Below are positions 2,176-50,842 of a stretch of DNA of 64,000 nt, piece by piece. Position numbers and translations under genes: made by a program. The notes beneath the pieces are model-generated. The model did not search any database. It saw only the letters and a program-made list of their open reading frames with translations, and was not told the origin of the DNA. The stretch spans positions 11,971 to 75,970 of the forward strand of contig JBAYWK010000003.1 of assembly GCA_041674105.1 (NCBI GenBank), in the 5' to 3' direction. The stretch's first letter is position 1; each line of letters opens with the position of its first letter. Source of the DNA: Minisyncoccota bacterium (GTDB taxonomy: Bacteria; Patescibacteriota; Minisyncoccia; Phycocordibacterales; DATDWN01).

Positions 2176-3897
2176 ATGTCATCATCAGTCGAACAAATAA
2201 AATCAAAAATAGATATAGGCTCACTTATCGGTTCCTATATAAAACTAGAGAAAGCAGGGTCTAATTTTAAAGGCAGGTGTCCTTTTCATAATGAGAAGAC
2301 GCCTTCCTTTTTCGTATCTCCAGATAGAGGGACTTATTATTGTTTCGGCTGTCATGCAAAAGGAGATATTTTTAGTTTCATCCAAGAGTTTGAAGGACTT
2401 GATTTTGTTGGAGCCTTAAAAAATTTAGCTGAGAGAGCTGGTGTTAAATTGGAGAAATATGAGTCTGGCCTTAAATCAGATAGAGACAAGTATTATTCAA
2501 TAATAGAACAGGCTGTCTTGTTTTATCAAAAAATATTTGGAGAATCTCTAGAGGCTAAAAAGTATATGGAAGAAAGAGGGGTTTTAGATAGTACTATAGA
2601 TAGTTTCCGTATAGGTTATGTGCCACTAGATTGGAGACAGCTCTTTGATCATTTAAGTTCAAAAAATGTTTCTGCTGATGATATGCTTAAAGTCGGTCTC
2701 ATAAAAAAGAAAGAAGGTTCTGAAAGTATGTATTATGATACCTTTAGAGGAAGAATAATGTTTCCTATAATGGATTCATCTGGCAGAGCGGTTGGTTTCT
2801 CAGGTAGGATTTTAGTTTCAGATCCAAAATCTCCAAAGTATTTAAATAGTCCTGATACTATTCTATTTAATAAGTCAGAGGTTCTTTTTGGTTTGGATAA
2901 AGCCAAGAGTGAAATAAAAATAAAAGATTATTCAATATTGGTTGAAGGACAGATGGATTTAATAATGCTTCATCAATCAGGTATAAAAAATACAGTAGCT
3001 TCGTCAGGGACAGCTTTATCTTCTGGACACCTTGTAACACTTAGGAGGTTCTCAAATAGAATAGTTATGTGTTATGACGGTGATGAAGCAGGGTTTTTGG
3101 CATCAAACAGGAGCGCTCATTTAGCCTTATCTTTGGATATGGAATTAAAAATAGCTGAAATGCCAAAAGGGAAAGACCCGGCTGATCTGAGTAAAGAAGA
3201 TAAAAATGAACTCATCTCTCGTCTAAAAAATTCTAAACATATTATAGATTTCTATGTAGATCATTTATTATCAAAAGATTTAGACCCAATAGCCTTAGGA
3301 AAAGAAATAAATCGCAGTATATTGCCATACGTTTCTTTACTTAAAAGTACAATAGATAAATCCAATTTTATAAAAAATATAGCCAAGAAGACTTTTATAA
3401 AAGAGGATGCCTTGTGGGAAGATTTAAAAAATATAAATATTCCTAATGTTCCATCTGACAAAGCAGTTTTGTCTAGAGAGAGAAAATCAGGTGGAACAGA
3501 GAGGAGGATTGTCGGAATTATTTTATGGCAAGAGACTCTAAAACCTTCTAGTTTAAAAGTAGAGGAAATCCGAGAAAAATTTATTTCTATTTTAGGAGAT
3601 GAAGAAGCTAAAAAAATATTTGAATTTCTAGAAAAAGATAAGGAAATGTTGCTTTTTGAAACGGAGAGTTTTTATAATGGGGTTGATTATTTAGAAAAAG
3701 ATGTGGGAGAATTGTTGATAGGATTGGAAGAGGATCTTTTAAAGAAAAAATTTACTGAGACAATGATTTTATTACAAAAGGCAGAGCAAAATAAAAATAA
3801 ACCAGAAATATTAAAATATTTGGAAGAATGTCAGATTATTTCCCAAAAAATCAATAATTTAAAATACAAATATGAAAACAAATATGAAAACAAATAA
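2176..3897 (+). CDS. dnaG: DNA primase
   Basis: CHC2 zinc finger [11 protein letters not shown]...[11 protein letters not shown] and a Toprim region ([18 protein letters not shown]). Conserved rpoC..dnaG-rpoD context. Confidence 0.9.
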
Positions 3898-5223: not shown

Positions 5224-8166
5224 ATGCTTAAAAACGAATTGGATCTCATTTTTGAGAAAAAATATAAAAGCTTAAATAATAAGCAAAAAATGGCGGTTGA
5301 TGCTATAGAGGGGCCTGTAATGGTCATAGCAGGTCCTGGTACGGGCAAGACGACCATTTTAACTCTTAGGATAGGAAATATACTTAAAAAAACAGATAAC
5401 CCTGCTTCGGGCATTTTAACACTTACTTTTACTGATGCTGGAGTAAAAGCTATAAAAATGAAACTTCGTGAGATAATAGGAAGTAGGGCAGATGATGTTA
5501 GAATTCATACTTTCCATAGCTTTGCTTCAAGTATTATTTCAGAATTTCCTGAACATTTTCCTCATCTATCAAAATCAAAACAAATTACTGATGTAGAAGC
5601 TGAGTCAATGATTAGGGATATTTTGAAAAATAAAAAATTTGCAAAACTTAGACCTTTGGGCGATACGGATTTTTATATACATAAAATATTGAGTGCCATA
5701 GGAGATTCTAAAAAAGAGGATTGGGATCCAGAAATTATAAGAAAATTTGCAAAAGAAGAAATTGATAGAATAGAAAATGATCCAAGTTCTTTATCTAGTA
5801 GAGGTGCTAGTAAAGGTAGTTTAAAAGCAGATAGCTTGAAGAGAATAGAAAGGTGTCAGAGGACTATTTTGTTTGCTGATGTTTTTGAAGAATATGAATT
5901 GAGTAAGATAAGTAATAAAAAGATAGATTATGATGACCTGCTAGTTGAACTGAATAAATCACTTAAAAATGACGAGTTACTTTTGAGATTGCTCCAAGAA
6001 AAATTTTTATATATTCTTGTAGACGAACATCAGGATACAAATGACTCGCAAAATTTAATTGTCTCTATGCTCTCTAATTTTTTTGAAACTCCAAATATTT
6101 TTGTAGTCGGTGATGAGAAACAAGCTATATATCGTTTCCAAGGAGCTTCGGTCGCGAACTTTCTTAGATTTCAAAATATATGGAAAGATATGAAGGTTAT
6201 TTCGCTAGAGGAAAATTATCGTAGTCATCAAGATATTTTGGATGCTACTTTTAAGATGATTGAACAAAATTATGAAGAAGGAGATTTAGAAGATCTAAGA
6301 GTAGAATTGAAATCAGGATTAAAAAAAGAAAAAAGACCAATAGATGTTATCTTTTCAGGCGATACTGATTCGGCAGATGCTTATCTCATAGAGGAACTCC
6401 AAAATATTTCTAAAAATGAACCTGAGGCAACCGTAGCTGTAATATTGAGGTGGAACAGAGATGTAGACCATATTTTGTCTTTATGTGAGTCACATGGAGT
6501 ATTTGTTTCGGCCGAGCGTGGCGCAGATATATTTTCTCATCCTTTGGGCAGTTTGTATTTTAAGATATTAGAATACTTAAGTGACCCATCAAAAACAGAT
6601 AGTCTAACTGAAACTATTGCACTAAATCTTTGGGGTCTAGATTTTGAAAAATCAAATAATCTAATTAAAAGAATCAGGAGTGGAAATATAAAAGATATTG
6701 AAAAAGAGATAGAAGTCCTTTCTGTCTTGCATAAAGAAATAAATATACTGAGCCCGATTGCTTATTTGATCTTTGTAGGTGAAGTTTCAGGGCTCATCTC
6801 TCCTGACAAAATGACCGACCCTCTGTCTGTAGAAGTTTGGAGGGGAATTATAGATTTAGCCAGAAATATCGCCGGGAACTCTAAAATAGAAAATTCTTTT
6901 GATTTAATAAAGGAGTTATTAGATTACAAAAAAACTTCTGAAAATAAAGTCATAAAAATAGGTAGTGGATCAGTAGATGCAAAAATACAAATAATGACAG
7001 CTCACTCTTCCAAAGGTTTAGAATTTGACTATGTTTTCGTTCCTTATGCTTTAGAAGAATATTGGATAAGGCGACCTCAGTCTGGAGCCTTTGTTCTTCC
7101 TAGAGAGGAAGATAATAGTGACGATATAAAAGATTCAAGGAGGCTTTTTTATGTAGCTTTGACTAGAGCCAAAAAACATCTTGTTATAATTGTCCCAACA
7201 AATGATAATCTAGGTAAAGATTTTACTCCACTCAGATTTGTGGAAGAGTTGCATCCGGGTAGTGTTAATAAGATAGAAGCTCCGCAAATAAAGAGTCTAC
7301 CAAAAATACTAAAAGGCGAAAGCTTGAATTCCCACAGAAAGTCGGAATTGGTTGAATATTCAAAAAGAGTTTTAATTGAGAACGGTTTATCTGTCACAGC
7401 TTTAAACCATTTTATGAAATGTCCGAGCGAGTTTCTTTATAAAAGTATATTAAAAGTTCCGGAAGCACCAAATGCGAGTTCTGAAAAAGGTACGGCTATG
7501 CATAAAGCTATGTCTTCTGTCTGGGCGAATGAAGACAAGAGAGTTTCTTCTATAACGAAAACAATAGAAGATTCTGTTAAATCTTATTTTGAAACGTCTC
7601 TCTTGCCAAAAGCAGAAAAGGAAATCATATTAGAAGAATTGATTTTATCTGCCGGAAGTATTGCAAAATCTTTGGAGAATCATTTTTCTATGAAAGGCAC
7701 TGTGCAAACTGATAAATGGATGGATTTTATATTTAAAACAAAATATAAAAATAAACAAATAGAATTAAAATTACATGGACAGTTAGATGTTTTAGTTTTT
7801 GAAGGTGAAAATAGTTTTGTTTTTGATTATAAAACAAGACAAGTTATGTCAGAGAATGCTATAAAAGGAGAAACTAAAAATACAGACGGTAATTATTTTA
7901 GACAACTTATTTTTTATAAAATTTTGGTAGAAGGTAACAGTCAGTTTGCTGGTAAAAATATGGAACTAGCTTTAGTTTTTATCAAGCCAGATGAAAAAGG
8001 ACGTTGTCCTGTAGTATCTATTTCTGTATCAAAAGAAGATGCAGATAAAGTAAAAGACGAAGTTTCTTATCTTTTGGAAAATGTCTATTCTGGAGAGTTT
8101 TTGGACAGAGTTTGTGATGATCCAGATTGTAAATGGTGTCCTCTTAAAAAGTATTCAATAAAATAA
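5224..8166 (+). CDS. UvrD/PcrA-family SF1 helicase fused to a C-terminal RecB/AddB-like nuclease domain with a Cys cluster
   Basis: Walker A AGPGTGKTT and DExQ-like VDEHQDT. C-terminal PD-(D/E)xK-like FVFDYKT and CDDPDCKWCP. Confidence 0.8.
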   Translation: MLKNELDLIFEKKYKSLNNKQKMAVDAIEGPVMVIAGPGTGKTTILTLRIGNILKKTDNPASGILTLTFTDAGVKAIKMKLREIIGSRADDVRIHTFHSFASSIISEFPEHFPHLSKSKQITDVEAESMIRDILKNKKFAKLRPLGDTDFYIHKILSAIGDSKKEDWDPEIIRKFAKEEIDRIENDPSSLSSRGASKGSLKADSLKRIERCQRTILFADVFEEYELSKISNKKIDYDDLLVELNKSLKNDELLLRLLQEKFLYILVDEHQDTNDSQNLIVSMLSNFFETPNIFVVGDEKQAIYRFQGASVANFLRFQNIWKDMKVISLEENYRSHQDILDATFKMIEQNYEEGDLEDLRVELKSGLKKEKRPIDVIFSGDTDSADAYLIEELQNISKNEPEATVAVILRWNRDVDHILSLCESHGVFVSAERGADIFSHPLGSLYFKILEYLSDPSKTDSLTETIALNLWGLDFEKSNNLIKRIRSGNIKDIEKEIEVLSVLHKEINILSPIAYLIFVGEVSGLISPDKMTDPLSVEVWRGIIDLARNIAGNSKIENSFDLIKELLDYKKTSENKVIKIGSGSVDAKIQIMTAHSSKGLEFDYVFVPYALEEYWIRRPQSGAFVLPREEDNSDDIKDSRRLFYVALTRAKKHLVIIVPTNDNLGKDFTPLRFVEELHPGSVNKIEAPQIKSLPKILKGESLNSHRKSELVEYSKRVLIENGLSVTALNHFMKCPSEFLYKSILKVPEAPNASSEKGTAMHKAMSSVWANEDKRVSSITKTIEDSVKSYFETSLLPKAEKEIILEELILSAGSIAKSLENHFSMKGTVQTDKWMDFIFKTKYKNKQIELKLHGQLDVLVFEGENSFVFDYKTRQVMSENAIKGETKNTDGNYFRQLIFYKILVEGNSQFAGKNMELALVFIKPDEKGRCPVVSISVSKEDADKVKDEVSYLLENVYSGEFLDRVCDDPDCKWCPLKKYSIK

Positions 8167-9693: not shown

Positions 9694-9769
9694 TCTTATT
9701 TTAAGCCATATTTTATATAACATAAAATATATTGATTTCTTAATTACAAAATAATAGACTGAGTTATCT

Positions 9770-11539
9770 ATGAAAAAACATAAAACAGAATGGGACCTAA
9801 GCCTTCTATATAGAAACAATAAAGATCCTAAGATAGAAAAAGATATTAAGGAGATAGAAGGACTGTGTAATAATTTTGAGATTAAATATAGAAATAAGGA
9901 TTTTACATCTTCACCTAAAAAACTTCTGATAACTTTAGTTGATTTTAATAAACTTCTTGAAAAATTAGAAAGAAACAAATCTTGGTGGTATTTTGCTCTT
10001 AAGGTTAGGTTGAATTCCTCTGACCAGTTTTCAAGTGCTTCTTCTACAAAATTAAGCGCACGTATTACTGAAGCTTTCAATAAGATAATGTTTTTTAATC
10101 TAGAAATAGGAAAAATAAACAAGAAAGATCAAAATAAATTTTTAAATAACCCGATGCTTACTGAGTTTAGGTATGTTCTACAGGTTATTTTTAAAAAATC
10201 AGAATTCAAATTGTCAGAAAAAGAAGAGCAAGTGATAGACCTTCTTTCCGAGACAAGTTATGGTATGTGGGTAAAAGGCTCAAGTAAGTTAGTTAACGAA
10301 CAACAGGTAATTTATAAAAATAAAAAGATTCCACTTTCTGAAGCTATATCTATTATGTCTGATTTAGAAACAAGAGATAGAAGGATTCTTGGACAAAAAA
10401 TAAATCAGTCATTAAAATCAGTTTCTCATTTTGCAGAAGCTGAAATAAATGCTGTTTACAATTACAAAAATATTTTAGACAAGCGCAGAGGTTATAAAAA
10501 ACCTTATAGCAATACAATACTGAATTATAAAAATAACGAGGAGACAATAGAAAAACTGGTTAAATTGGTTACAAAGTATTTTTCTTTAAGTAAAAGATTT
10601 TATAGTATACAAGCAAAAATTTTAAAGAAGAAAAAGTTAACTTATTCTGATAGGGTGGCAAGTATAGGTAAAATAAATAAAAAATTTGACCTAAAATCAT
10701 CAATAGAAATCGTTATGGAATCTTTCAATAAGATTGATCCAAAATACGGTAGAATAGTTTCTATGTTTTTTGAAAATGGGCAGGTTGATGTTTACCCAAA
10801 AAAAGGAAAATCTGGTGGAGCATTTTGTTGGGGAATGGGTGATTTGCCTGTTTTTGTTTTTTTAAATCATACAGACGACATAAGATCTGTTGAAACTTTA
10901 GCTCATGAAATGGGTCATGCCATACATACTGAACTATCCAAATCTCAACCTGTTCAGTATAGGGATTACTCTATGGCTGTTGCCGAAGTGGCTAGCACAT
11001 TTTTTGAACAGGTTGTCATAGACGAACTTGAAAAATATTTATCTGATGATGATAAAATAATATTACTTCATAATAAAATTAAGGGTGATATTTCAACTAT
11101 ATTTAGACAAATTGCTTGTTTCAATTTTGAACTTGAACTTCATAATAAAATAAGAGAAAAAGGTGAACTTTCAAAGGAAGAAATGGCAAGTCTTCTTGCT
11201 AAACACATGAGGGCTTATTTAGGAGATATTGTAGAAGTTACAGAAGATGATGGTTATCAGTTTGTAAGCTGGTCTCATATCAGAAGGTTTTTTTATGTAT
11301 ATTCATATGCTTACGGACAACTTATAAGTCGGTCATTGTTTGAAAATTGGAAGAAAGACAAATCTTATGCGATAAAGATTGAGAAATTTTTAAGTAGTGG
11401 TGGTTCAATGAGTCCTGAGGATATATTTAACAAAGCTGGTATAGATACTACTGATATGAAATTTTTTGAATCAGGTATAAAAAGTATAAAGAAAGATATA
11501 GATAAGTTGGAGAAAATATCTTTAGGAAAAAGTCTTTAG
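9770..11539 (+). CDS. pepF: Oligoendopeptidase F (M3B family)
   Basis: HEMGH zinc-binding motif (LAHEMGHAIH), about 590 aa, M3-like architecture. Confidence 0.8.
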   Translation: MKKHKTEWDLSLLYRNNKDPKIEKDIKEIEGLCNNFEIKYRNKDFTSSPKKLLITLVDFNKLLEKLERNKSWWYFALKVRLNSSDQFSSASSTKLSARITEAFNKIMFFNLEIGKINKKDQNKFLNNPMLTEFRYVLQVIFKKSEFKLSEKEEQVIDLLSETSYGMWVKGSSKLVNEQQVIYKNKKIPLSEAISIMSDLETRDRRILGQKINQSLKSVSHFAEAEINAVYNYKNILDKRRGYKKPYSNTILNYKNNEETIEKLVKLVTKYFSLSKRFYSIQAKILKKKKLTYSDRVASIGKINKKFDLKSSIEIVMESFNKIDPKYGRIVSMFFENGQVDVYPKKGKSGGAFCWGMGDLPVFVFLNHTDDIRSVETLAHEMGHAIHTELSKSQPVQYRDYSMAVAEVASTFFEQVVIDELEKYLSDDDKIILLHNKIKGDISTIFRQIACFNFELELHNKIREKGELSKEEMASLLAKHMRAYLGDIVEVTEDDGYQFVSWSHIRRFFYVYSYAYGQLISRSLFENWKKDKSYAIKIEKFLSSGGSMSPEDIFNKAGIDTTDMKFFESGIKSIKKDIDKLEKISLGKSL

Positions 11540-14236: not shown

Positions 14237-14299
14237 TTATTTCTATAAGATGGTTTAATACAAAGTAGAAAGGGATTCATGGCCAGTTTCAACCCGGAT

Positions 14300-14482
14300 A
14301 TCGAATATTTCGTGAGGGAACTCTTTAACTTTGACGGAGAGAGGAAGGAGGAAAAAAAAGTTCGTCCGTTGAAAAGGCCTAGTAGAAATCACAGGGGCAC
14401 AGAGATGAAGCCTCCAAGGAGTCGTCCGTGCGCCTGCTATCGCGCACGGTAAACCCAAGCCCCCACAATTGTGGGGGCTTTT
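14300..14482 (+). ncRNA. GC-rich, hairpin-dense intergenic segment. Candidate structured RNA of unknown family, ending in a terminator.
   Basis: About 50% GC in a ~33% GC genome. Hairpins CCGTGCGC-ctgctat-GCGCACGG and GCCCCCACAATTGTGGGGGC + TTTT. No convincing ORF. Confidence 0.25.
14459..14482. terminator. Perfect 20-bp palindrome GCCCCCACAATTGTGGGGGC followed by a T-run
   Basis: Seen directly. Likely a terminator between convergent truB (+) and typA (-). Confidence 0.5.
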
Positions 14483-14572
14483 AAATTTAGGAAAATTTAG
14501 AATCATTCCAGGTTATTTTGGTAGGTTTAGTTTTCTGATGAAATTTTTATTTAAGTAGGCAAGGCTTTTGAA

Positions 14573-14704
14573 GCAACACATCTCTGGAGCCTCTGCAGGC
14601 CTTGAGCAGGGTTTCGTCAAGGCACCTCGTTCTTGACGAATCAAGGCCGAGGACAGTTCTTCAAACTCGCTGGAGTTTGTGAGGGTGCGATAGAAGTGTG
14701 TTGC
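14573..14704 (+). repeat. 132-nt structured repeat element, copy 1 (ncRNA or MITE-like)
   Basis: About 88% identical to 22920..23051. Terminal stem GCAACACA/TGTGTTGC. Internal stems GGCCTTGA/TCAAGGCC and TTCGTCAAG/CTTGACGAA. Confidence 0.6.
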
Positions 14705-14746
14705 GGAAAAAACCGAGAATGGTTTTTATTTTATGTGTTTGTGGAT

Positions 14747-16501
14747 TTACTTCTTAAAAACCTTTTTTCTCAATCTGACGGATTTTGGAGTTATCTCTAT
14801 AAACTCATCTTCAGCCATTATTTCCATAGCTTTTTCTATATCTAGTTTGTAAGCTGGAGCAAGAAAGATGCCGTCATCAGAGCCAGAAGCACGCATATTT
14901 GTAAGTTGTTTTCCTTTTATAGGGTTTACTTGCAGGTCGTCTCCTTTTGAAACATTTCCAATAACCATCCCTTCGTAGACTTCCATTCCGGGTTCTACAT
15001 ATAGAGTTCCTCTTTGTTGTAGGTTATCCAAAGCAAAAGCTAAAACTTTTCCTTTCATCATAGAAACCATAGATCCTAAATGAGTCTTTTTTATTTCTCC
15101 AACATAAGCTCTAAATTCTACAAATCTGCTAGAAAGTATCCCTTGACCTTTTGTATCTACTACAAATTGTCCTCTATAACCCAAAAGTCCTCTAGTTGGT
15201 ATTTCAAAAGTTAGTCTTTGGGTGGTATCTTCTTGTTTTATATTCGTTATTATTCCTTTTCTACTTGTCAGTGTACTTATCACAGTACTTGCAGATTCAT
15301 TTGGAACATCAATAATTACTTCTTCAAAGGGTTCTACTTGGACACCGTCTACTTCTTTCAAAATAACTTGAGGCTGTGATACTTGAACTTCATATCCTTC
15401 TCTTCTCATATTTTCCAAAAGTACAGCGATGTGTAGTTCACCCCTACCATATACTGTGTAATATTCATTGTTATTCCAATCAACTTTTAGCCCGACATTA
15501 ACTTCGAGTTCTTTTTCCAATCTTTCTCTTATTTGTCTTCCTGTAACAAATTTTCCTTCAAGTCCGGCAAAAGGAGAGTTGTTTACTAGAAAGTTTAAAG
15601 ATATTGTTGGTTCATCTATTTTAATTGTAGGAAGTGGTTCTGCATTTTCATCTTTGCAAATTGTATCTCCAATATAAATAGTCGGAAGACCAGCGATCAT
15701 TACAATATCTCCTGAAAAGGCTTCGTTGGCTTCTACTCTTTCTGTTCCTTTAAATGTAAAGAGTTTTGTTATTTTTCCAGAAACTGTTTCAGTATTATGT
15801 TGTTTAAAAAAAATTTGTTCTCCGGTTTTTATGACGCCATCGTAGACTCTACATATAGCTAGTCTGCCCATAAAGTTATCATAAGCTAAATTGAAAGTCT
15901 GAAGTTTGGCTGGGGCATTTAAGTCGCCGTTTGCTATGGGTACTATTTCTAGTATCGTATCTAAAAGAGGAGTCAGGTCTTTTGAACCATCACTAAGTTT
16001 TCTTTTAGCAATACCTTCTCTACCAATAGCATATATGGTAGTGAAATCCAGTTGCTCATCGTTTGCCCCAAGTTCCATAAATAATTCCAAAATCATCTCG
16101 TGAACTTCATCTGGTCTAGCTGCTGGTTTGTCTATTTTATTTATAACTACAATCGGTTTTAATCCAAGTTCTAGAGATTTTTTAAGCACAAATCTGGTCT
16201 GGGGCATAGGACCTTCTTGAGCATCTACAAGTAGCAAAACACAGTCAATAGACCTGAGAACTCTTTCTACCTCAGAACCAAAGTCAGCGTGGCCTGGTGT
16301 ATCTACGATGTTTATCTTTGTACCTTTGTAGTCTATAGATGTGTTTTTTGAATATATAGTAATACCTCTCTCAAGCTCTAAAGCATTGGAGTCCATAGTA
16401 GCTCCTTCAAGAGACATACCTGTCTGGCGCATCAAAGCATCGGTCAGAGTTGTCTTACCGTGGTCTACGTGAGCTATTATTGCGATATTTCTTATTTCCA
16501 T
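14747..16501 (-). CDS. typA: Translational GTPase TypA/BipA
   Basis: G-domain AIIAHVDHGKTT, DTPGHADF, NKID. Start re-set to MEIRNIAIIAHVDHGK (ATG at 16501). Confidence 0.9.
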   Translation of the reverse strand: MEIRNIAIIAHVDHGKTTLTDALMRQTGMSLEGATMDSNALELERGITIYSKNTSIDYKGTKINIVDTPGHADFGSEVERVLRSIDCVLLLVDAQEGPMPQTRFVLKKSLELGLKPIVVINKIDKPAARPDEVHEMILELFMELGANDEQLDFTTIYAIGREGIAKRKLSDGSKDLTPLLDTILEIVPIANGDLNAPAKLQTFNLAYDNFMGRLAICRVYDGVIKTGEQIFFKQHNTETVSGKITKLFTFKGTERVEANEAFSGDIVMIAGLPTIYIGDTICKDENAEPLPTIKIDEPTISLNFLVNNSPFAGLEGKFVTGRQIRERLEKELEVNVGLKVDWNNNEYYTVYGRGELHIAVLLENMRREGYEVQVSQPQVILKEVDGVQVEPFEEVIIDVPNESASTVISTLTSRKGIITNIKQEDTTQRLTFEIPTRGLLGYRGQFVVDTKGQGILSSRFVEFRAYVGEIKKTHLGSMVSMMKGKVLAFALDNLQQRGTLYVEPGMEVYEGMVIGNVSKGDDLQVNPIKGKQLTNMRASGSDDGIFLAPAYKLDIEKAMEIMAEDEFIEITPKSVRLRKKVFKK

Positions 16502-21893: not shown

Positions 21894-21992
21894 ATGAAAA
21901 AATTAGACCGAAGGGTTGACAAATAAGCTGATTTTGTGTAGGTTTATGGCGCTGCCCAAGAGGGCACTAGTTCAGTTCTTTGAGAGGTGCTT

Positions 21993-22787
21993 ATGCGAAA
22001 TGTCGCACTTTTGCTCGTCCTTTTCTGCCTTGTCCTTTCGGGCAATGCTACACCAATCATGCCTTCGTTTGACGGTGCACCGGTGGGAGGGTGGACAACT
22101 GACCGTTATCAACCCAATACATTTGCCGACATCGGCACATTTCAGGGACGTAACGATGTTCTTCGGATCGGCATTGATGCCGCCCAAGGACTCGGCAACC
22201 GTGGCGGTCAGAACAGTCAATTCTACAACACGCAGGGTATGCAATACCTTGTGTCAGGTGGAGCTGGATCTGTATTGTCGGCTGACCTCTGGATACCAGA
22301 GGAATGGGCCATAGAGTCAAATGGCTCGCGTCGTACGGATATGTGGGGCATCATGCAAGACGGTGCAGCAAATGTATCCGGCTATCCCATTTTGGGATTC
22401 ACCAATTACGGAGGAGTTGGGATGTTCCGAGCATGGAACGACTCTGGCTCTGGAAGTTGGCAAATTTTGTCCGACAATGTCCAGTACGGAGCCTGGAACT
22501 CATTGGCAATTGTCTTTACCGGGACAGACTACGAGTACCATGTGAATGGTACGAATAGCTGGAGCAACACTGTTCCTGCTGGGACTGTTGGTTTTAAAGG
22601 CCTGATCATGCAGGCCTACAACTTCAACGGGGATACTTCAATCCCTAACTCTGTAACAGCGGGTGGTGTCGGAAATTACGACGCTAATTGGGCGAATGCA
22701 TCCCAGGTTCCGGAACCTGGGACTTGGCTTCTGTCCGGACTGGGACTTCTTGGTCTCGGTCTCTGGCGTCGTCGCCAGATCTCATAA
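21993..22787 (+). CDS. Secreted PEP-CTERM sorting-signal protein (GC-rich, about 55% GC)
   Basis: Signal peptide MRNVALLLVLFCLVLSGNA. C-terminal VPEPGTWLLSGLGLLGLGLWRRRQ (PEP motif + TM + basic tail). Start could also be GTG at 21987. Confidence 0.7.
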   Translation: MRNVALLLVLFCLVLSGNATPIMPSFDGAPVGGWTTDRYQPNTFADIGTFQGRNDVLRIGIDAAQGLGNRGGQNSQFYNTQGMQYLVSGGAGSVLSADLWIPEEWAIESNGSRRTDMWGIMQDGAANVSGYPILGFTNYGGVGMFRAWNDSGSGSWQILSDNVQYGAWNSLAIVFTGTDYEYHVNGTNSWSNTVPAGTVGFKGLIMQAYNFNGDTSIPNSVTAGGVGNYDANWANASQVPEPGTWLLSGLGLLGLGLWRRRQIS

Positions 22788-22919
22788 GGGAGAGTACCTT
22801 TCAACCAAAAGCCGTGGGTTTACACCTACGGCTTTTTTATTATTCCAAAAAAGTTTTTTAGATTCTTATACAAATTAAGAACTAAAACAATTAAGAGTTA
22901 ATATTTAATAACCACTACA

Positions 22920-23051
22920 ACAACACATTTCTGGAGCCTCCGCAGGCCTTGAGCATGGTTTCGTCAAGACACCCCGTTCTTGACGAATCAAGGCCGAGGA
23001 CAGCCAAACAAACTCGCTGGAGTTTGTGAGGGTGCGACAGAAGTGTGTTGT
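22920..23051 (+). repeat. 132-nt structured repeat element, copy 2
   Basis: Same length and orientation as 14573..14704. Terminal stem ACAACACA/TGTGTTGT (compensatory change vs copy 1). Differences cluster in loops. Confidence 0.6.
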
Positions 23052-23057
23052 AGTGGT

Positions 23058-23222
23058 CTAGCTGGTCAAACTAAAAAATACTCCCAAGTAGTATGGCCAC
23101 AAAACTATAGCCAAAACACCTTGCCAAAAAGCAAGTTTAAGGTATCCCAGTGTGAATAGCCACCCGACTATCCAAAGACCACCAAGACAACCGCTATCAT
23201 TTTTTATTTTTATTTTTTCCAT
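23058..23222 (-). CDS. Possible 54-aa small membrane protein (not in the supplied ORF track)
   Basis: ATG...TAG on the minus strand: MEKIKIKNDSGCLGGLWIVGWLFTLGYLKLAFWQGVLAIVLWPYYLGVFFSLTS. No clear SD. Confidence 0.25.
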   Translation of the reverse strand: MEKIKIKNDSGCLGGLWIVGWLFTLGYLKLAFWQGVLAIVLWPYYLGVFFSLTS

Positions 23223-26610: not shown

Positions 26611-26621
26611 TTTGTTGTTTG

Positions 26622-26694
26622 CTCCGCGACCAGGGCTCGAACCTGGGACCCTCCCGTTAACAGCGGGGCGCTCTACCGGCTGAGCTATCGCGGA
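26622..26694 (-). tRNA. tRNA-Asn (anticodon GTT)
   Basis: Cloverleaf: acceptor TCCGCGA/TCGCGGA, D-arm GCTC/GAGC, anticodon loop CTGTTAA, T-arm CCAGG-TTCGAGC-CCTGG. CCA not encoded. Confidence 0.85.
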
Positions 26695-31696: not shown

Positions 31697-32710
31697 ATGG
31701 GTATTTTTTCCAAAAAATTGGGGATTGATTTGGGTACAGCAAATACATTGGTGTTTGTTCCTGGTAGAGGAGTTGTCCTAAATGAACCTTCGGTCGTGGC
31801 TGTTTCAGAAGAAGACAACAGAATAATGGCTATTGGAATAGAGGCAAAGAATATGATAGGTAGAACCCCCGAAAGTATCATTGCTTATAGACCAATGAAA
31901 GACGGAGTAATAGCTGACTATAGAGTTACAGAAGCAATGCTTAGATATTACATAGACAAAGCTATGGGTAAATGGAATTTCATAAAACCTGAAGTTTTGG
32001 TATCAGTACCAGCAGGAGTAACCTCCACTGAAAGAAGGGCTGTCATAGAAGCTGCCATAAGAGCTGGTGCAAAAAATGCTTATGTGGTCAAGGAACCAAT
32101 ACTTGCCGCCATAGGTGCAGGAATTCCAATCCATGAACCTGTCGGTCATATGATAGTTGATATAGGTGGAGGAACTACAGATGTTGCTGTTATTTCTTTA
32201 GGGGGAATAGTTGCTTCTATGTCTGTAAAATGGGCCGGTAACAAGATAGACTCTGCTATTACAGATTATATTAAAAAGACTTTTAATCTCGGAATCGGTG
32301 ATAAAACAGCTGAAGATATAAAAATAAAAATAGGATCGGCTATACCTTTGGATGAAGAATTATCTACTACAATAAAAGGAAGAGATTTTATAACGGGGTT
32401 ACCTAGAAGTGTAGAGATGAAAACAAATGAAGTTGTAAAAGCCATTAGTAAGGATTTGAGAGAAATGATAAAAGCTATAAAAGATGTGCTTCAAGAAACT
32501 CCACCAGAGCTTGCTTCAGATATTATAGACAAAGGTATTATTATGACAGGAGGATCATCACAATTGAGAAATTTTCCAGAACTGGTTTTTAGGAGAACAG
32601 GTGTAAAGGCCGTCTTGGCTAAGGATTCTTTATATTGTGTGGTCAAAGGGACAGGTATTGCTTTAGATCATTTAGATACATATAAGAAAAGTATAATATC
32701 TAAAAGATAA
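31697..32710 (+). CDS. mreB: Rod-shape protein MreB paralog 1
   Basis: Actin-fold motifs LGIDLGTANT, VDIGGGTTDVA, MTGGSSQL. Start re-set to MGIFSKK. Confidence 0.85.
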   Translation: MGIFSKKLGIDLGTANTLVFVPGRGVVLNEPSVVAVSEEDNRIMAIGIEAKNMIGRTPESIIAYRPMKDGVIADYRVTEAMLRYYIDKAMGKWNFIKPEVLVSVPAGVTSTERRAVIEAAIRAGAKNAYVVKEPILAAIGAGIPIHEPVGHMIVDIGGGTTDVAVISLGGIVASMSVKWAGNKIDSAITDYIKKTFNLGIGDKTAEDIKIKIGSAIPLDEELSTTIKGRDFITGLPRSVEMKTNEVVKAISKDLREMIKAIKDVLQETPPELASDIIDKGIIMTGGSSQLRNFPELVFRRTGVKAVLAKDSLYCVVKGTGIALDHLDTYKKSIISKR

Positions 32711-35227: not shown

Positions 35228-36475
35228 ATGCGACAATCACAACTATTTACAAAAACACGAAAAGAAGTCCCCGCGGATGAAGTATCAAAAAATGCTGAGC
35301 TTTTAATAAGAGCTGGTTTTATAAACAAAGAAATGTCTGGAGTTTACAGCTATCTTCCTTTGGGTCTTTTGGTTCTAAAAAAAATAGAAAATATTATTAG
35401 AGAAGAAATGAATATTATCGGTGGACAAGAAATATTGATGACTTCTCTTCAAGATAAAGAGGTCTGGGAAAAAACTGGTAGATGGGATGATGATGTTGTT
35501 GATGTTTGGTTTAAGACTAAGCTAAAAAATGAGACAGAAGTTGGCTTGGCTAATACACACGAAGAAGCTGTTTCTAAAATAGTAAAAAACTATGTTCAGT
35601 CTTATAAAGACTTACCTTTTTATACTTATCAATTTCAGACAAAATTTAGGAATGAAACAAGGGCTAAAAGTGGAGTAATGAGGACAAGAGAGTTTATTAT
35701 GAAAGATCTTTATTCTTTTCATATAGACAATCAGGACCTGGATGATTTTTATGAAAAATGTGCAGATGCGTACAGTCATATATTTGATAGAGTTGGTTTG
35801 GGAGAATATACCTATAAGACTTTCGCTTCAGGTGGTATATTTTCTAAATATAGCCACGAATTTCAAACAGTTTGTGAAGCTGGTGAAGACATAATATATA
35901 TAGATGAAAAGAAAAAAATAGCTGTAAATAAAGAGGTTTATAATGATGAGGTCTTGGCTGATCTAGGTCTGGATAAGAGTGGCCTTGTAGAAAAAAAAGC
36001 GATAGAAGTTGGTAATATTTTTAAGCTAGGAACTAAATTCTCAGATCCTTTGGAGTTAAATTATGTAACTTTAGATGGAGATAAAAAACCAGTTATTATG
36101 GGAAGTTATGGTATAGGTCCAGCTAGAGTTATGGGTGCCATAGTTGAATCTTTTGCTGATGAAAAAGGAATAGTTTGGCCTAAAGAAGTTTCTCCTTTTT
36201 TTGTTCATCTAGTTTTACTTGGTGAAAATAAAGATACAAAATATTTTGCTGATAATATTTATACAGATTTGAGAAAAGCTTCTGTGGAGGTTTTGTACGA
36301 TGATAGAGATTTGAGAGCCGGAGAGAAATTTGCTGATTCAGATTTGATTGGTATTCCCATAAGACTTGTTGTTTCAGATAAAACTGTAGGAGAGGGTAAG
36401 GTGGAAATGAAATACAGGACAAGTGCAGAAGTAGAACTTCTTACTTTAGAGGATGTATTGAAAAAAGTTATTTAA
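35228..36475 (+). CDS. proS: Prolyl-tRNA synthetase (short archaeal/eukaryote-like type)
   Basis: Class II motifs (FRNETRAKSGVMRTREF, GSYGIGPARV) and a C-terminal anticodon-binding domain. Confidence 0.8.
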   Translation: MRQSQLFTKTRKEVPADEVSKNAELLIRAGFINKEMSGVYSYLPLGLLVLKKIENIIREEMNIIGGQEILMTSLQDKEVWEKTGRWDDDVVDVWFKTKLKNETEVGLANTHEEAVSKIVKNYVQSYKDLPFYTYQFQTKFRNETRAKSGVMRTREFIMKDLYSFHIDNQDLDDFYEKCADAYSHIFDRVGLGEYTYKTFASGGIFSKYSHEFQTVCEAGEDIIYIDEKKKIAVNKEVYNDEVLADLGLDKSGLVEKKAIEVGNIFKLGTKFSDPLELNYVTLDGDKKPVIMGSYGIGPARVMGAIVESFADEKGIVWPKEVSPFFVHLVLLGENKDTKYFADNIYTDLRKASVEVLYDDRDLRAGEKFADSDLIGIPIRLVVSDKTVGEGKVEMKYRTSAEVELLTLEDVLKKVI

Positions 36476-36533
36476 TAAATTTGTTTTATAGGAGAACAAA
36501 GTATAAGCTAAAGCAGTTTTAGTATATTAATTT

Positions 36534-37595
36534 ATGATCAAAAATTTAGAACAATTCAAGAGATTTCTTTCAAATGATATTGGCATAGACCTTGGTACAG
36601 CAAATACCCTGGTCTATCTTCGTGGTAAGGGAATTATTCTAAATGAGCCTTCAGTCGTAGCTATAAATCAAAAAACAGGCCAGGTTGTTGCAGTAGGAAC
36701 AGATGCAAAAAATATGCTCGGTAGAACTCCGGGGCATATTGTAGCGGTCAGACCTCTAGTAGATGGAGTTATTTCAGATTTTGAAGTGACAGAGGAAATG
36801 ATAACTTATCTTTTACGAAAAGCTGAAAAAGATAATAAAAAACTCATAGGTCCTAGGGTTGTGGTCGGAGTCCCTTCTGGAATCACAAATGTTGAAATAA
36901 GGGCGGTAAGAGACGCCACAAAAAATGCAGGAGCTTCTGAGGTTTATATTGTAGAGGAACCTATGGCTGCGGCTATAGGAATAAGACTTCCAGTTCTCGA
37001 TCCAGTTGGTAATATGATTATTGATATTGGTGGAGGAACTTCGGATATAGCTGTTATTTCCTTAGGAGGTTTAGTAAGGTCAAAGAATTTACGAGTTGCA
37101 GGAGATAAATTAAATCAAGATATAATTTCTTATATAAGAAGTGAATTTAAAATTCTCATTGGCGAAAAGACAGCTGAAAATATTAAAATAACTATAGGAG
37201 CCATAATAGCTGGAAACATACCTCTTGAAGCTCCTATAAAAGGACGGGACTTAATATCTGGTTTACCAAGAGAAGTTATCGTAACTGACTCTGATATTAG
37301 AGAAGCAATTTCTCAATCGATAGATACCTTAATAGAAGCAACCAAAGAAGTGTTGGAAACGACGCCTCCCGAAATTTTATCAGATGTTATGCAAAGAGGA
37401 ATCTATCTGACTGGTGGAGGAGCTTTGATAAAAGGTTTATCCGAATTAATATCTGAATATACAAAAGTTCCTGTGCATATTGCTCAAGATCCTTTGACTG
37501 CTGTGTGTAGAGGAACAGGAATTATACTTGAGAAACTTGATACGTATAAAGACGTCTTAATTGCAAAAGAAGATGAATTACCACCTAAAAAGTAA
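36534..37595 (+). CDS. mreB: Rod-shape protein MreB paralog 2 (heads the mreBCD-mrdA group)
   Basis: IGIDLGTANT, IDIGGGTSDIA, LTGGGALI motifs. Confidence 0.9.
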   Translation: MIKNLEQFKRFLSNDIGIDLGTANTLVYLRGKGIILNEPSVVAINQKTGQVVAVGTDAKNMLGRTPGHIVAVRPLVDGVISDFEVTEEMITYLLRKAEKDNKKLIGPRVVVGVPSGITNVEIRAVRDATKNAGASEVYIVEEPMAAAIGIRLPVLDPVGNMIIDIGGGTSDIAVISLGGLVRSKNLRVAGDKLNQDIISYIRSEFKILIGEKTAENIKITIGAIIAGNIPLEAPIKGRDLISGLPREVIVTDSDIREAISQSIDTLIEATKEVLETTPPEILSDVMQRGIYLTGGGALIKGLSELISEYTKVPVHIAQDPLTAVCRGTGIILEKLDTYKDVLIAKEDELPPKK

Positions 37596-48493: not shown

Positions 48494-48565
48494 GGCCTTA
48501 TCGTCTAACGGTTAGGACGAAGCCTTCTCAAGGCTTAAATCGGGGTTCGATTCCCCGTAAGGTCA
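48494..48565 (+). tRNA. tRNA-Glu (anticodon CTC)
   Basis: Acceptor GGCCTTA/TAAGGTC, D-arm GTCT/GGAC, anticodon stem AAGCC/GGCTT with loop TTCTCAA, T-arm CGGGG-TTCGATT-CCCCG. Confidence 0.85.
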
Positions 48566-48670
48566 CAAGTAGACCCATCTTCTGATAGCTTTTGAATAAA
48601 TTCATGCAGTTGCTTGTTTTATTGTATTTTTTAAAGAAATATGACATATTTTGTGAGGAAGGAGGTTCTC

Positions 48671-49905: not shown

Positions 49906-49942
49906 AAAACCGCTCGCGCCAAGAGGTGTCGAGCGGTTTTTT
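49906..49942 (+). terminator. Terminator module T1
   Basis: AAAACCGCTCGCGCC-aaga-GGTGTCGAGCGGTTTTTT. Near-identical to 50805..50842. Confidence 0.7.
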
Positions 49943-50804: not shown

Positions 50805-50842
50805 AAAAACCGCTCGCACCAAAAGGTGCCGAGCGGTTTTTC
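50805..50842 (+). terminator. Terminator module T2
   Basis: AAAAACCGCTCGCACC-aaaa-GGTGCCGAGCGGTTTTT. Confidence 0.7.

Follow-up and report, generated by a model that had tools for sequence, protein, structure and literature searches.

What kind of element is it that stands twice, as nearly the same hairpin-rich 132 nucleotides, between the genes of an AT-rich bacterial genome? The DNA in which this question arises, called the window here, is a stretch of 64,000 nt from a Minisyncoccota bacterium (GenBank assembly GCA_041674105.1, contig JBAYWK010000003.1, positions 11,971 to 75,970 of the forward strand). A preliminary description, made from the sequence, had placed two repeats at 14573-14704 (copy 1) and 22920-23051 (copy 2) and had left them between a novel structured non-coding RNA and a mobile element, i.e. 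a miniature inverted-repeat transposable element (MITE), an IS200/605-type end or an omega-RNA. We show here that the fold of these repeats has been kept by compensatory evolution on the plus strand, and that they belong to an RNA family that is absent from Rfam 15 and previously undescribed. As to what the RNA is for, we put at roughly one half the probability that the window repeats are paralogous genes of an independently transcribed, trans-acting family of structured small RNAs in Parcubacteria, within the candidate phyla radiation (CPR).

Two copies of a three-way junction

Alignment confirmed two repeats of the same length and orientation, and it runs ungapped on the same strand; their high identity also stood, with a measured value of 119 of 132 bases (90.2%) in place of the ~88% first given. 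Each copy was matched by a covariance model (CM).

14573..14704, plus strand: copy 1, RNA core of the long-P2 subtype (CM R1 match at 14567-14711, 110.9 bits, E=6e-27)
22920..23051, plus strand: copy 2, RNA core of the long-P2 subtype (CM R1 match at 22915-23057, 118.9 bits, E=4e-29)

When 100 nt of flank were added to the alignment, the similarity of the two copies was gone within a few bases of the 132-mer, and the flanks are unrelated. Similarly, a 24-nt core pattern, allowing up to 3 mismatches, matched the window at copies 1 and 2 only and matched none of 100 shuffles. Because the similarity ends at the element and the core pattern is unique to both sites, the element is discrete. The preliminary description had named a longer duplicated segment as the finding that would undo its case, and such a segmental duplication is rejected, since the similarity does not extend into the 100-nt flanks. 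A repeat finder likewise returned the pair as a family (D1) of 130 nt with two copies. No further copy was found in the window by CM R1 with default filters, by CM R2 with filters off or by two motif searches, the best extra CM match (159-271) appearing to be coding.

The plus strand folds with an energy of -57.8 kcal/mol in copy 1 and -65.7 kcal/mol in copy 2 (z = -4.3 and -7.6 against shuffles), and the minus strand of both copies folds more poorly. The architecture is a three-way junction consisting of a closing helix (P1), an exchangeable arm (P2) and a short hairpin (P3), with the following parts.

14573..14586, plus strand: copy 1, 5' strand of P1, paired with 14691-14704 in the minimum free energy (MFE) fold
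14691..14704, plus strand: copy 1, 3' strand of P1 (MFE fold and covariation)
14563..14569, plus strand: copy 1, possible outer extension of P1, GGCUUUU with AAAAACC at 14708-14714 (sequence reading and arm alignment)
14598..14648, plus strand: copy 1, P2 arm (fold and covariation)
14598-14605 / 14641-14648, plus strand: copy 1, P2a, GGCCUUGA/UCAAGGCC
14606-14612, plus strand: copy 1, 7-nt bulge of P2, GCAGGGU
14613-14621 / 14632-14640, plus strand: copy 1, P2b, UUCGUCAAG/CUUGACGAA, with loop 14622-14631
14649..14661, plus strand: copy 1, junction J2/3, GAGGACAG and a variable tail
14662..14679, plus strand: copy 1, P3 hairpin, CAAACUC-GCUG-GAGUUUG
22911..22933, plus strand: copy 2, full 5' strand of P1, the outer ACCACU (22911-22916) pairing with AGUGGU (23052-23057)
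23038..23057, plus strand: copy 2, full 3' strand of P1 (fold and arm alignment)
22945..22995, plus strand: copy 2, P2 arm, laid out as in copy 1, with bulge GCAUGGU
23009..23026, plus strand: copy 2, P3 hairpin, CAAACUC-GCUG-GAGUUUG

Within copy 1, two of the 14 positions of P1 are G-U pairs and a third is a C-A mismatch, formed by 14582 and 14695, and the possible outer extension, which lies across a GAA/GGA internal loop and has one C-A mismatch, is weaker than its equivalents in other lineages. The inner 14 nt of the 5' strand of P1 in copy 2 pair with 23038-23051, and the full helix there has 15 Watson-Crick pairs and one bulge by arm alignment, or 22 pairs by the fold. In the junction, the GG of J2/3 (14651-14652) pairs with two pyrimidines at 14593-14594, which are CU in copy 1 and CC in copy 2. 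Measured against this fold, the preliminary description was right about a terminal stem but not about its length, given as 8 bp, since 14 bp of the stem lie within the 132-mer and the pairing goes on into the flanks. The small GCCT-CTGC-AGGC hairpin that it proposed is unsupported by the homologues, and a region that it took for part of a loop belongs to the third hairpin (14662-14679), which it had missed.

The two copies differ at 13 positions, 8 of which are unpaired, lying in the bulge (37), the apical loop (50, 55) and the junction (85-89) as numbered along the 132-mer. At positions 1 and 132, a G-C pair in one copy is replaced by A-U in the other, so the compensatory change first reported for the terminal stem is real. 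Positions 22 and 119 switch between G-C and G-U, and position 10 is the C-A mismatch of copy 1.

Covariation and the wider RNA family

Homologues were sought in species-representative genomes with an exact 22-mer, which occurs in one genome, a Candidatus Zambryskibacteria, at one locus, and in metagenomes with a gapped pattern that returned 50 loci; loci and contigs from metagenomes are cited below by L numbers. About 22 of these 50 are true homologues, 17 of them distinct long-P2 sequences, on contigs of 33-50% GC; the high-GC matches are chance ones in coding DNA. As selection required TGAGCANGGT and TCAAGGCCGAGGA, the invariance of both stretches is partly an artefact of ascertainment. One homologue (L058, 3535-3674, 79.8 bits) was found by the covariance model alone, without the P2 pattern, and its P2a reads AACCCAAA/UUUGGGUU as against GGCCUUGA/UCAAGGCC in the window, a fully covaried helix. 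P2a thus covaries also, because it has changed on both strands.

The covariation check proposed in the preliminary description was made on a model-based alignment of 19 distinct sequences of the long subtype. Standard pairs fill 97.8% of the cells, both sides have changed in 22 of the 39 pairs, and the covariation score is 0.56, compared with at most 0.165 when the partners are slid and with no shuffle in 500 reaching as high. An alignment fitted to a model favours pairing, and an alignment made with MAFFT only agrees. P1 covaries across all homologues and P2b has three covarying pairs, while P3, which measures 7-12 bp among homologues, shows compensatory changes in 6 of its 7 modelled pairs, with 98.5% of the cells paired. 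The structure is intact in every copy seen. Among the modelled pairs there are 20 G-U against 1 A-C, and therefore the plus strand is the one that folds. In single-stranded DNA, too, G-T is tolerated better than any other mismatch, so that what the strand bias supports is a plus strand folded in single-stranded form, RNA being the simplest.

At the gathering threshold, Rfam 15 found only two tRNAs in the window and 12 homologous loci, and with E<=5-10 its 4227 models gave only chance matches, none overlapping consistently, to the elements, a full-length member and the mini variants described below. The Rfam check that had been suggested hence ended with no family match, and nothing in the searchable full-text literature described an RNA or repeat like this from CPR bacteria. 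The claim of a novel structured non-coding RNA has held up, with covariation in many Parcubacteria contigs, the excess of G-U over A-C and no Rfam match at E<=10.

The core of this RNA is ~145-150 nt long in the window and 150-200 nt in other lineages. Its P1 ranges from 22 to ~40 bp and is near perfect, some lineages having a perfect duplex of ~35-40 bp; the aligned arm segments contain 17-32 Watson-Crick pairs, in sequences that are unrelated from lineage to lineage. In many members the helix has an outer internal loop, GUCGAG opposite GAGAAAG, and a base made of AAAAUCUC/GAGAUUUU, and the full-length RNA of L016 folds with z = -14. In the long subtype, P2 consists of a basal helix, a 7-nt 5' bulge GCAKGGU and a second helix, mostly with an extra variable hairpin. 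The junction and bulge nucleotides are conserved across homologues, and a CGAG-N3-4-GAG-type junction is common to the long subtype and the mini variants.

The first of these mini variants adjoins a long copy in L038, in divergent orientation, and has P1, the junction strands, P3 and the outer loop in common with it, its P2 being cut down to GCGC-GACG-GCGC. Syntenic loci were retrieved through the neighbouring M50 protease, and a second model was built from mini variants. In 10.8 kb of L057, a contig that comes from the same sample as the window, there are three mini copies within 7 kb, two of them back to back, with rpmB on one side and the M50 protease gene on the other.

3278-3406, minus strand: mini copy in L057 (mini model)
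9733-9861, minus strand: mini copy in L057 (mini model)
9858-9982, plus strand: mini copy in L057 (mini model)

More mini copies are present in L061 and L008, and members with other P2 modules in L026, L058, L060 and L061. The mini model scores the long subtype at 40-58 bits, and because it recognises that subtype, the scaffold shared by the subtypes is confirmed. Across subtypes, 95.9% of the scaffold cells are paired, both sides have changed in 33 of 35 pairs, and the score is 0.57 against at most 0.123 with slid partners. L038, L061 and L057 carry copies at one locus, upstream of rpmB, whose P1 and P3 have diverged and are still paired, with G-U intermediates and one compensatory pair between the two closest. 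Larger relatives were seen at ~3050-3262 (plus strand) of L060 and ~3101-3263 (minus strand) of L061, where P2 has a conserved module of a different kind (CACUGUUUGAG ... CGAGUUUG); they suggest that the mosaic hairpin elements of these genomes form a wider set.

A proposed family of small-RNA genes and its rivals

What we have is a new family within a known kind, that of small RNAs with a conserved fold, or of structured intergenic repeats, whose function is unknown, and its unusual traits are the very long perfect closing helix, the exchangeable P2 module and the residence in minimal CPR genomes. If the window repeats are small-RNA genes, as we favour, each copy would be a plus-strand transcription unit of its own, with a -10-like box a few nt upstream of P1 and with an A-run and a U-run framing this helix; P1 and the U-run would bring transcription to an end. 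The candidate signals in the window are these.

14548..14553, plus strand: -10-like box TATTTA, 9 nt upstream of the outer stem of copy 1, a candidate promoter (sequence reading)
22902..22907, plus strand: -10-like box TATTTA, immediately upstream of the outer stem of copy 2 (sequence reading)
14708..14735, plus strand: weak hairpin and U-rich run after copy 1, AAAAACC-GAGAAU-GGUUUUU (sequence reading; a consensus scan made no call)

The last of these could terminate the RNA and, read on the opposite strand, bipA. A (T/C)AAAAT-type box lies upstream of most homologues, 5-30 nt before the helix and often followed by YAC(C)ACUAG, and a U-run comes after the helix; in AT-rich DNA, this recurrence of box and U-run is only suggestive of promoter and terminator. 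In L002/L024, L022 and L037 both neighbouring genes run antisense to the element, which would therefore need its own promoter. As a perfect duplex exceeding 20 bp, P1 is likely cut by RNase III, and it may serve as a processing or stability stem like those that flank rRNA. The conserved junction and the P2 bulge could then form the working surface that binds a protein or other partner in trans, and different P2 modules might direct paralogues to different partners. A bolder proposal, which we offer tentatively and with more doubt than conviction, is that of a new, CPR-specific modular RNA class, with a three-way-junction chassis, a perfect helix of 30-40 bp, P2 modules that can be exchanged (the long and mini ones and two or more besides) and many copies per ~1-Mb genome, and with an undescribed activity, for example as a ribozyme or as the RNA of a ribonucleoprotein or processing system.

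Several findings weigh against a family of small-RNA genes. Promoter and terminator were read at the level of consensus, in DNA that is AT-rich, and the scan tool called neither; the search pattern accounts in part for the apparent invariance that the bulge and UCAAGGCCGAGGA show in the long subtype; and in outer P1 the G-U and A-C counts are nearly even (13 vs 8). Moreover, the RNA is not where its relatives would predict. L062, whose BipA is 77% identical to that of the window and which has the gene order RNase_H_2, hisS, bipA in common with it, is without a counterpart of copy 1 before the bipA stop codon. The window is without the RNA at the sites syntenic with L022 (proS-mreB) and L013 (rmuC), and L061, with an M50 protease 93% identical to that of L038, is without the long copy of L038. 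With up to three copies in 11 kb (L057), the patchy multi-copy pattern also fits a selfish repeat. The family is dispersed and its positions differ between related genomes, and this repeat-element aspect is real. The proS-mreB spacer of the window (~36475-36535) is the empty counterpart of the L022 RNA site; the window has two MreB-like genes, the second of which follows proS, with 5' ends (31704-31801 and 36565-36662) that are 73% identical.

The main rival, to which we allow a minor but real chance, is accordingly a selfish, dispersed structured repeat of the ERIC/IRU or Correia kind, the long hairpin of which would be needed, as RNA or single-stranded DNA, by the mobilising machinery, any effects on the host (termination, RNase III cleavage of neighbouring transcripts) being secondary. 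In favour of such a repeat, the element is multi-copy and dispersed, with two copies in the window, three in L057 and two each in L008, L026, L038 and L058, it varies in presence at syntenic intergenic sites of relatives, and it prefers the 3' ends of convergent genes, where insertion harms least; the A-run and U-run around long inverted arms and the mosaic, modular interior are also consistent with it. Direct repeats flank the long copy of L038 (10 nt) and the window copies (8-9 nt), but overall the longest flanking repeat averages 6.1 nt against 5.8 nt in mismatched controls, with 4 of 21 copies at 8 nt or more (both window copies and L038 among them) where ~1.8 were expected. The target-site duplication that the preliminary description wished to see checked thus gives no general signal, the window copies lying in the upper tail. 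Nor are the arms conserved between copies, as sequence-specific transposase sites would be, and there are no near-identical bursts, copies within a genome being 65-93% alike. The structure is kept in every copy seen, even in same-locus ones whose divergence is saturated, unlike in decaying insertions; the neighbourhoods that were scanned held no autonomous partner, and the 22-mer occurs at one locus only in the one genome that holds it. The likeness to ERIC/IRU elements lies in dispersed intergenic units of ~130 nt with a long imperfect hairpin, internal insertions at fixed points, structure kept across species, no linked transposase and variable location. The ERIC consensus, however, is conserved along the whole palindrome, whereas our RNA conserves only junction and loop nucleotides and leaves the arms free; it is further set apart by a three-way junction, what looks like its own promoter, the one-strand G-U bias, Parcubacteria as hosts and the lack of sequence similarity to ERIC. 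With the Correia elements of Neisseria and other RNase III-cleaved repeats it shares long terminal inverted arms, a perfect duplex and intergenic position, but not the conserved 26-bp inverted repeats, the TA target duplication or the hundreds of near-identical copies, none of which were found here. A bidirectional intrinsic terminator, or hairpin punctuating the transcripts of the flanking genes, is very improbable. The helix framed by AAAAUCUC...GAGAUUUU does give a stem and U-run on either strand, and many copies lie between convergent genes, but others lie in divergent promoter regions with no 3' end (L038, L057, L058), separate and stronger terminators precede both window copies, and termination would account neither for the conserved three-way junction nor for the strand-specific loops and the G-U bias of 20:1. 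We find it hardly credible that the element is an IS200/IS605-type end or a degenerate omega-RNA or guide scaffold, whether a remnant or used in trans by a TnpB/IscB-type nuclease. It is a structured scaffold with variable parts, as such an RNA would be, but the variable segments are the two strands of P1, which are fully paired together and leave no free single-stranded guide, and no Rfam omega-RNA model matched. No TnpA, TnpB or IscB gene lies near either copy or near ~15 homologues whose neighbours were read.

Self-cleaving ribozyme families combine conserved junction nucleotides with covarying helices and optional stems, and they occur in several copies with no fixed neighbour. A new class of this kind would suit the conserved junction strands (GAGAC-UYCG-SAG before P2, CGAG-N3-4-GAG after it), the covarying helices, the optional length of P2 and the dispersed copies without a fixed neighbour; it is nevertheless unlikely, given that no Rfam ribozyme matched, no hammerhead-type core was seen on inspection, the element is far oversized and a closing helix of 30-40 bp is atypical of small ribozymes. 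Also quite unlikely is a lineage-specific 6S-like RNA, an open-promoter mimic that would sequester RNA polymerase holoenzyme. The outline of the long subtype recalls 6S RNA in its size (~185-200 nt), closing stem of 35-40 bp, unpaired centre with a small 3'-side hairpin and apical arm of 65-85 nt; like 6S RNA it stands alone, and there is precedent for two 6S copies per genome. Moreover, the 3' strand of P2b reads UUGAC(A/G), ~17 nt before the junction, but a chance UUGAC in 150 nt is expected about once in seven. The 5' side of the supposed bubble is only ~9 nt long and partly paired, and the centre is a compact three-way junction; the mini variants keep the scaffold with an apical arm of 4 bp, which leaves nothing to mimic an upstream promoter, and the copy number rises to three in 11 kb. 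The Rfam 6S models (RF00013 and relatives) did not match the full-length RNA or other members at E<=10. Processing stems of rRNA and other stable RNAs resemble P1 as near-perfect flanking helices of 25-40 bp that vary between lineages, some with a conserved internal loop, but the helix here encloses an RNA of 100-150 nt and not rRNA, and its processing is our conjecture. The RNA, an intergenic element that covaries and is GC-rich where the genome is AT-rich, is also akin to the orphan structured RNA motifs of Rfam; none of the models there matches it, and its modular P2 and very long perfect P1 are unusual among them.

Some more specific candidates found no support or were rejected. A MITE, as first proposed, is at odds with stem arms that are unrelated between lineages and outer parts that differ between the window copies; because the arms differ between copies and lineages, they are not terminal inverted repeats recognised by a transposase. 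Two copies at 90% in 64 kb, with no near-identical bursts and no transposase in the scanned neighbourhoods, point the same way; the MITE, IS200/605 and omega-RNA proposals are all unsupported, with differing arms, no consistent target-site duplication and no transposase, TnpB/IscB or reverse transcriptase (RT) among the scanned open reading frames (ORFs). The termini do not fit the R''/R' cores of an integron attC site (RYYYAAC ... GTTRRRY) and differ per lineage, and the neighbours are housekeeping genes in mixed orientation. A template and variable repeat pair of a diversity-generating retroelement is rejected because the copy differences are not adenine-specific and both copies are intergenic. 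The idea of a guide or spacer fared no better: in a weak test, two stem-arm sequences had no match in viral contigs and the arm 12-mers no extra match in 75 kb. In viral contigs the only matches to two core 18-21-mers or to the gapped pattern were chance ones in GC-rich coding DNA. As for coding potential, the element holds only ORFs of 22-26 aa and one 70-aa ORF with a TTG start (14633-14845), which leaves copy 1 and crosses the 3' end of bipA, and the indels in P2 among homologues are not multiples of three, which counts against coding. The motifs of 5S rRNA, signal recognition particle RNA, RNase P, hammerhead and glycine riboswitch are absent, and their Rfam models were silent.

Parcubacteria and other CPR lineages make up a large share of bacterial diversity and have tiny genomes, and to our knowledge hardly any non-coding RNAs besides the universal ones have been characterised in them. 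Multi-copy RNAs of 130-200 nt, with helices kept by compensatory evolution and a junction conserved across deep lineages, are likely to be important to CPR biology; if they are selfish instead, they would be a new type of element that persists in extremely streamlined genomes. The covariance model is ready for the annotation of CPR genomes, and from the very long perfect stem follows a prediction about RNase III processing that can be tested.

Neighbouring genes and minor observations

The window lies on a metagenome contig of 208 kb. Its organism belongs to Parcubacteria (CPR), as judged from L062, which is related to it by BipA and gene order and carries a protease identical in sequence to one that NCBI lists for a Parcubacteria group bacterium. 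Copy 1 has hisS, truB and bipA as neighbours; copy 2 has enolase, iPGM and adk upstream, a DEAD-box helicase downstream and a PEP-CTERM gene beside it. This last gene (21987-22787) encodes a PEP-CTERM-anchored protein and has 49% GC in a 33% GC genome, which is unexpected for Parcubacteria, and it is the only gene of clearly atypical composition near the repeats. The supposed link to GC-rich foreign genes and horizontal transfer is not borne out, the flanks being truB, bipA, enolase, iPGM and adk. The element itself (~51% GC, against 33% for the window) owes its higher GC content solely to being a structured RNA in a genome of 33% GC. A scan of the ORFs around both copies (~9.8-26.4 kb) found housekeeping or unassigned genes and no transposase, TnpB/IscB or RT. 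Among homologues, too, the neighbours are housekeeping genes; they differ per genome and include pnp, comM, recG, rmuC, ruvB, proS, thrS, prfB, rpsI, rplY, rpmB and the M50 protease gene.

Separate strong terminators of the upstream genes precede the copies, at 14457-14480 for copy 1 and 22807-22836 for copy 2. The former, which is bidirectional, closes a GC-rich stretch between truB and copy 1 (14237-14480) with a very basic 57-aa ORF (14279-14452, plus strand) that has no Pfam match; L062 has a different small ORF and a terminator in the same place. On the other side of copy 2, a hydrophobic 54-aa ORF (23058-23222, minus strand) runs convergently, its stop codon abutting the outer stem. A toxin-antitoxin-like arrangement of this ORF with copy 2 was considered, and no other locus supports it.

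In L038, the 10-nt direct repeat AAGTTTTTAA (6099-6108 and 6284-6293) around the long copy that is absent from L061 may be either a target duplication or, in DNA this rich in AT, a coincidence. Elsewhere in the window, the tRNA-Asn gene (26621-26694, minus strand) has 68% GC, well above the genome average, and tRNA-Glu has 51%. The latter (48494-48566) lies in a region at 47-51 kb, of 41-44% GC, together with a pair of terminator-like hairpins (AAAACCGCTCGCGCC...GGTGTCGAGCGGTTTTT) at 49906-49941 and 50806-50841 that are 92% identical and 900 nt apart. A pair of 47-nt repeats stands at 49937 and 51363.

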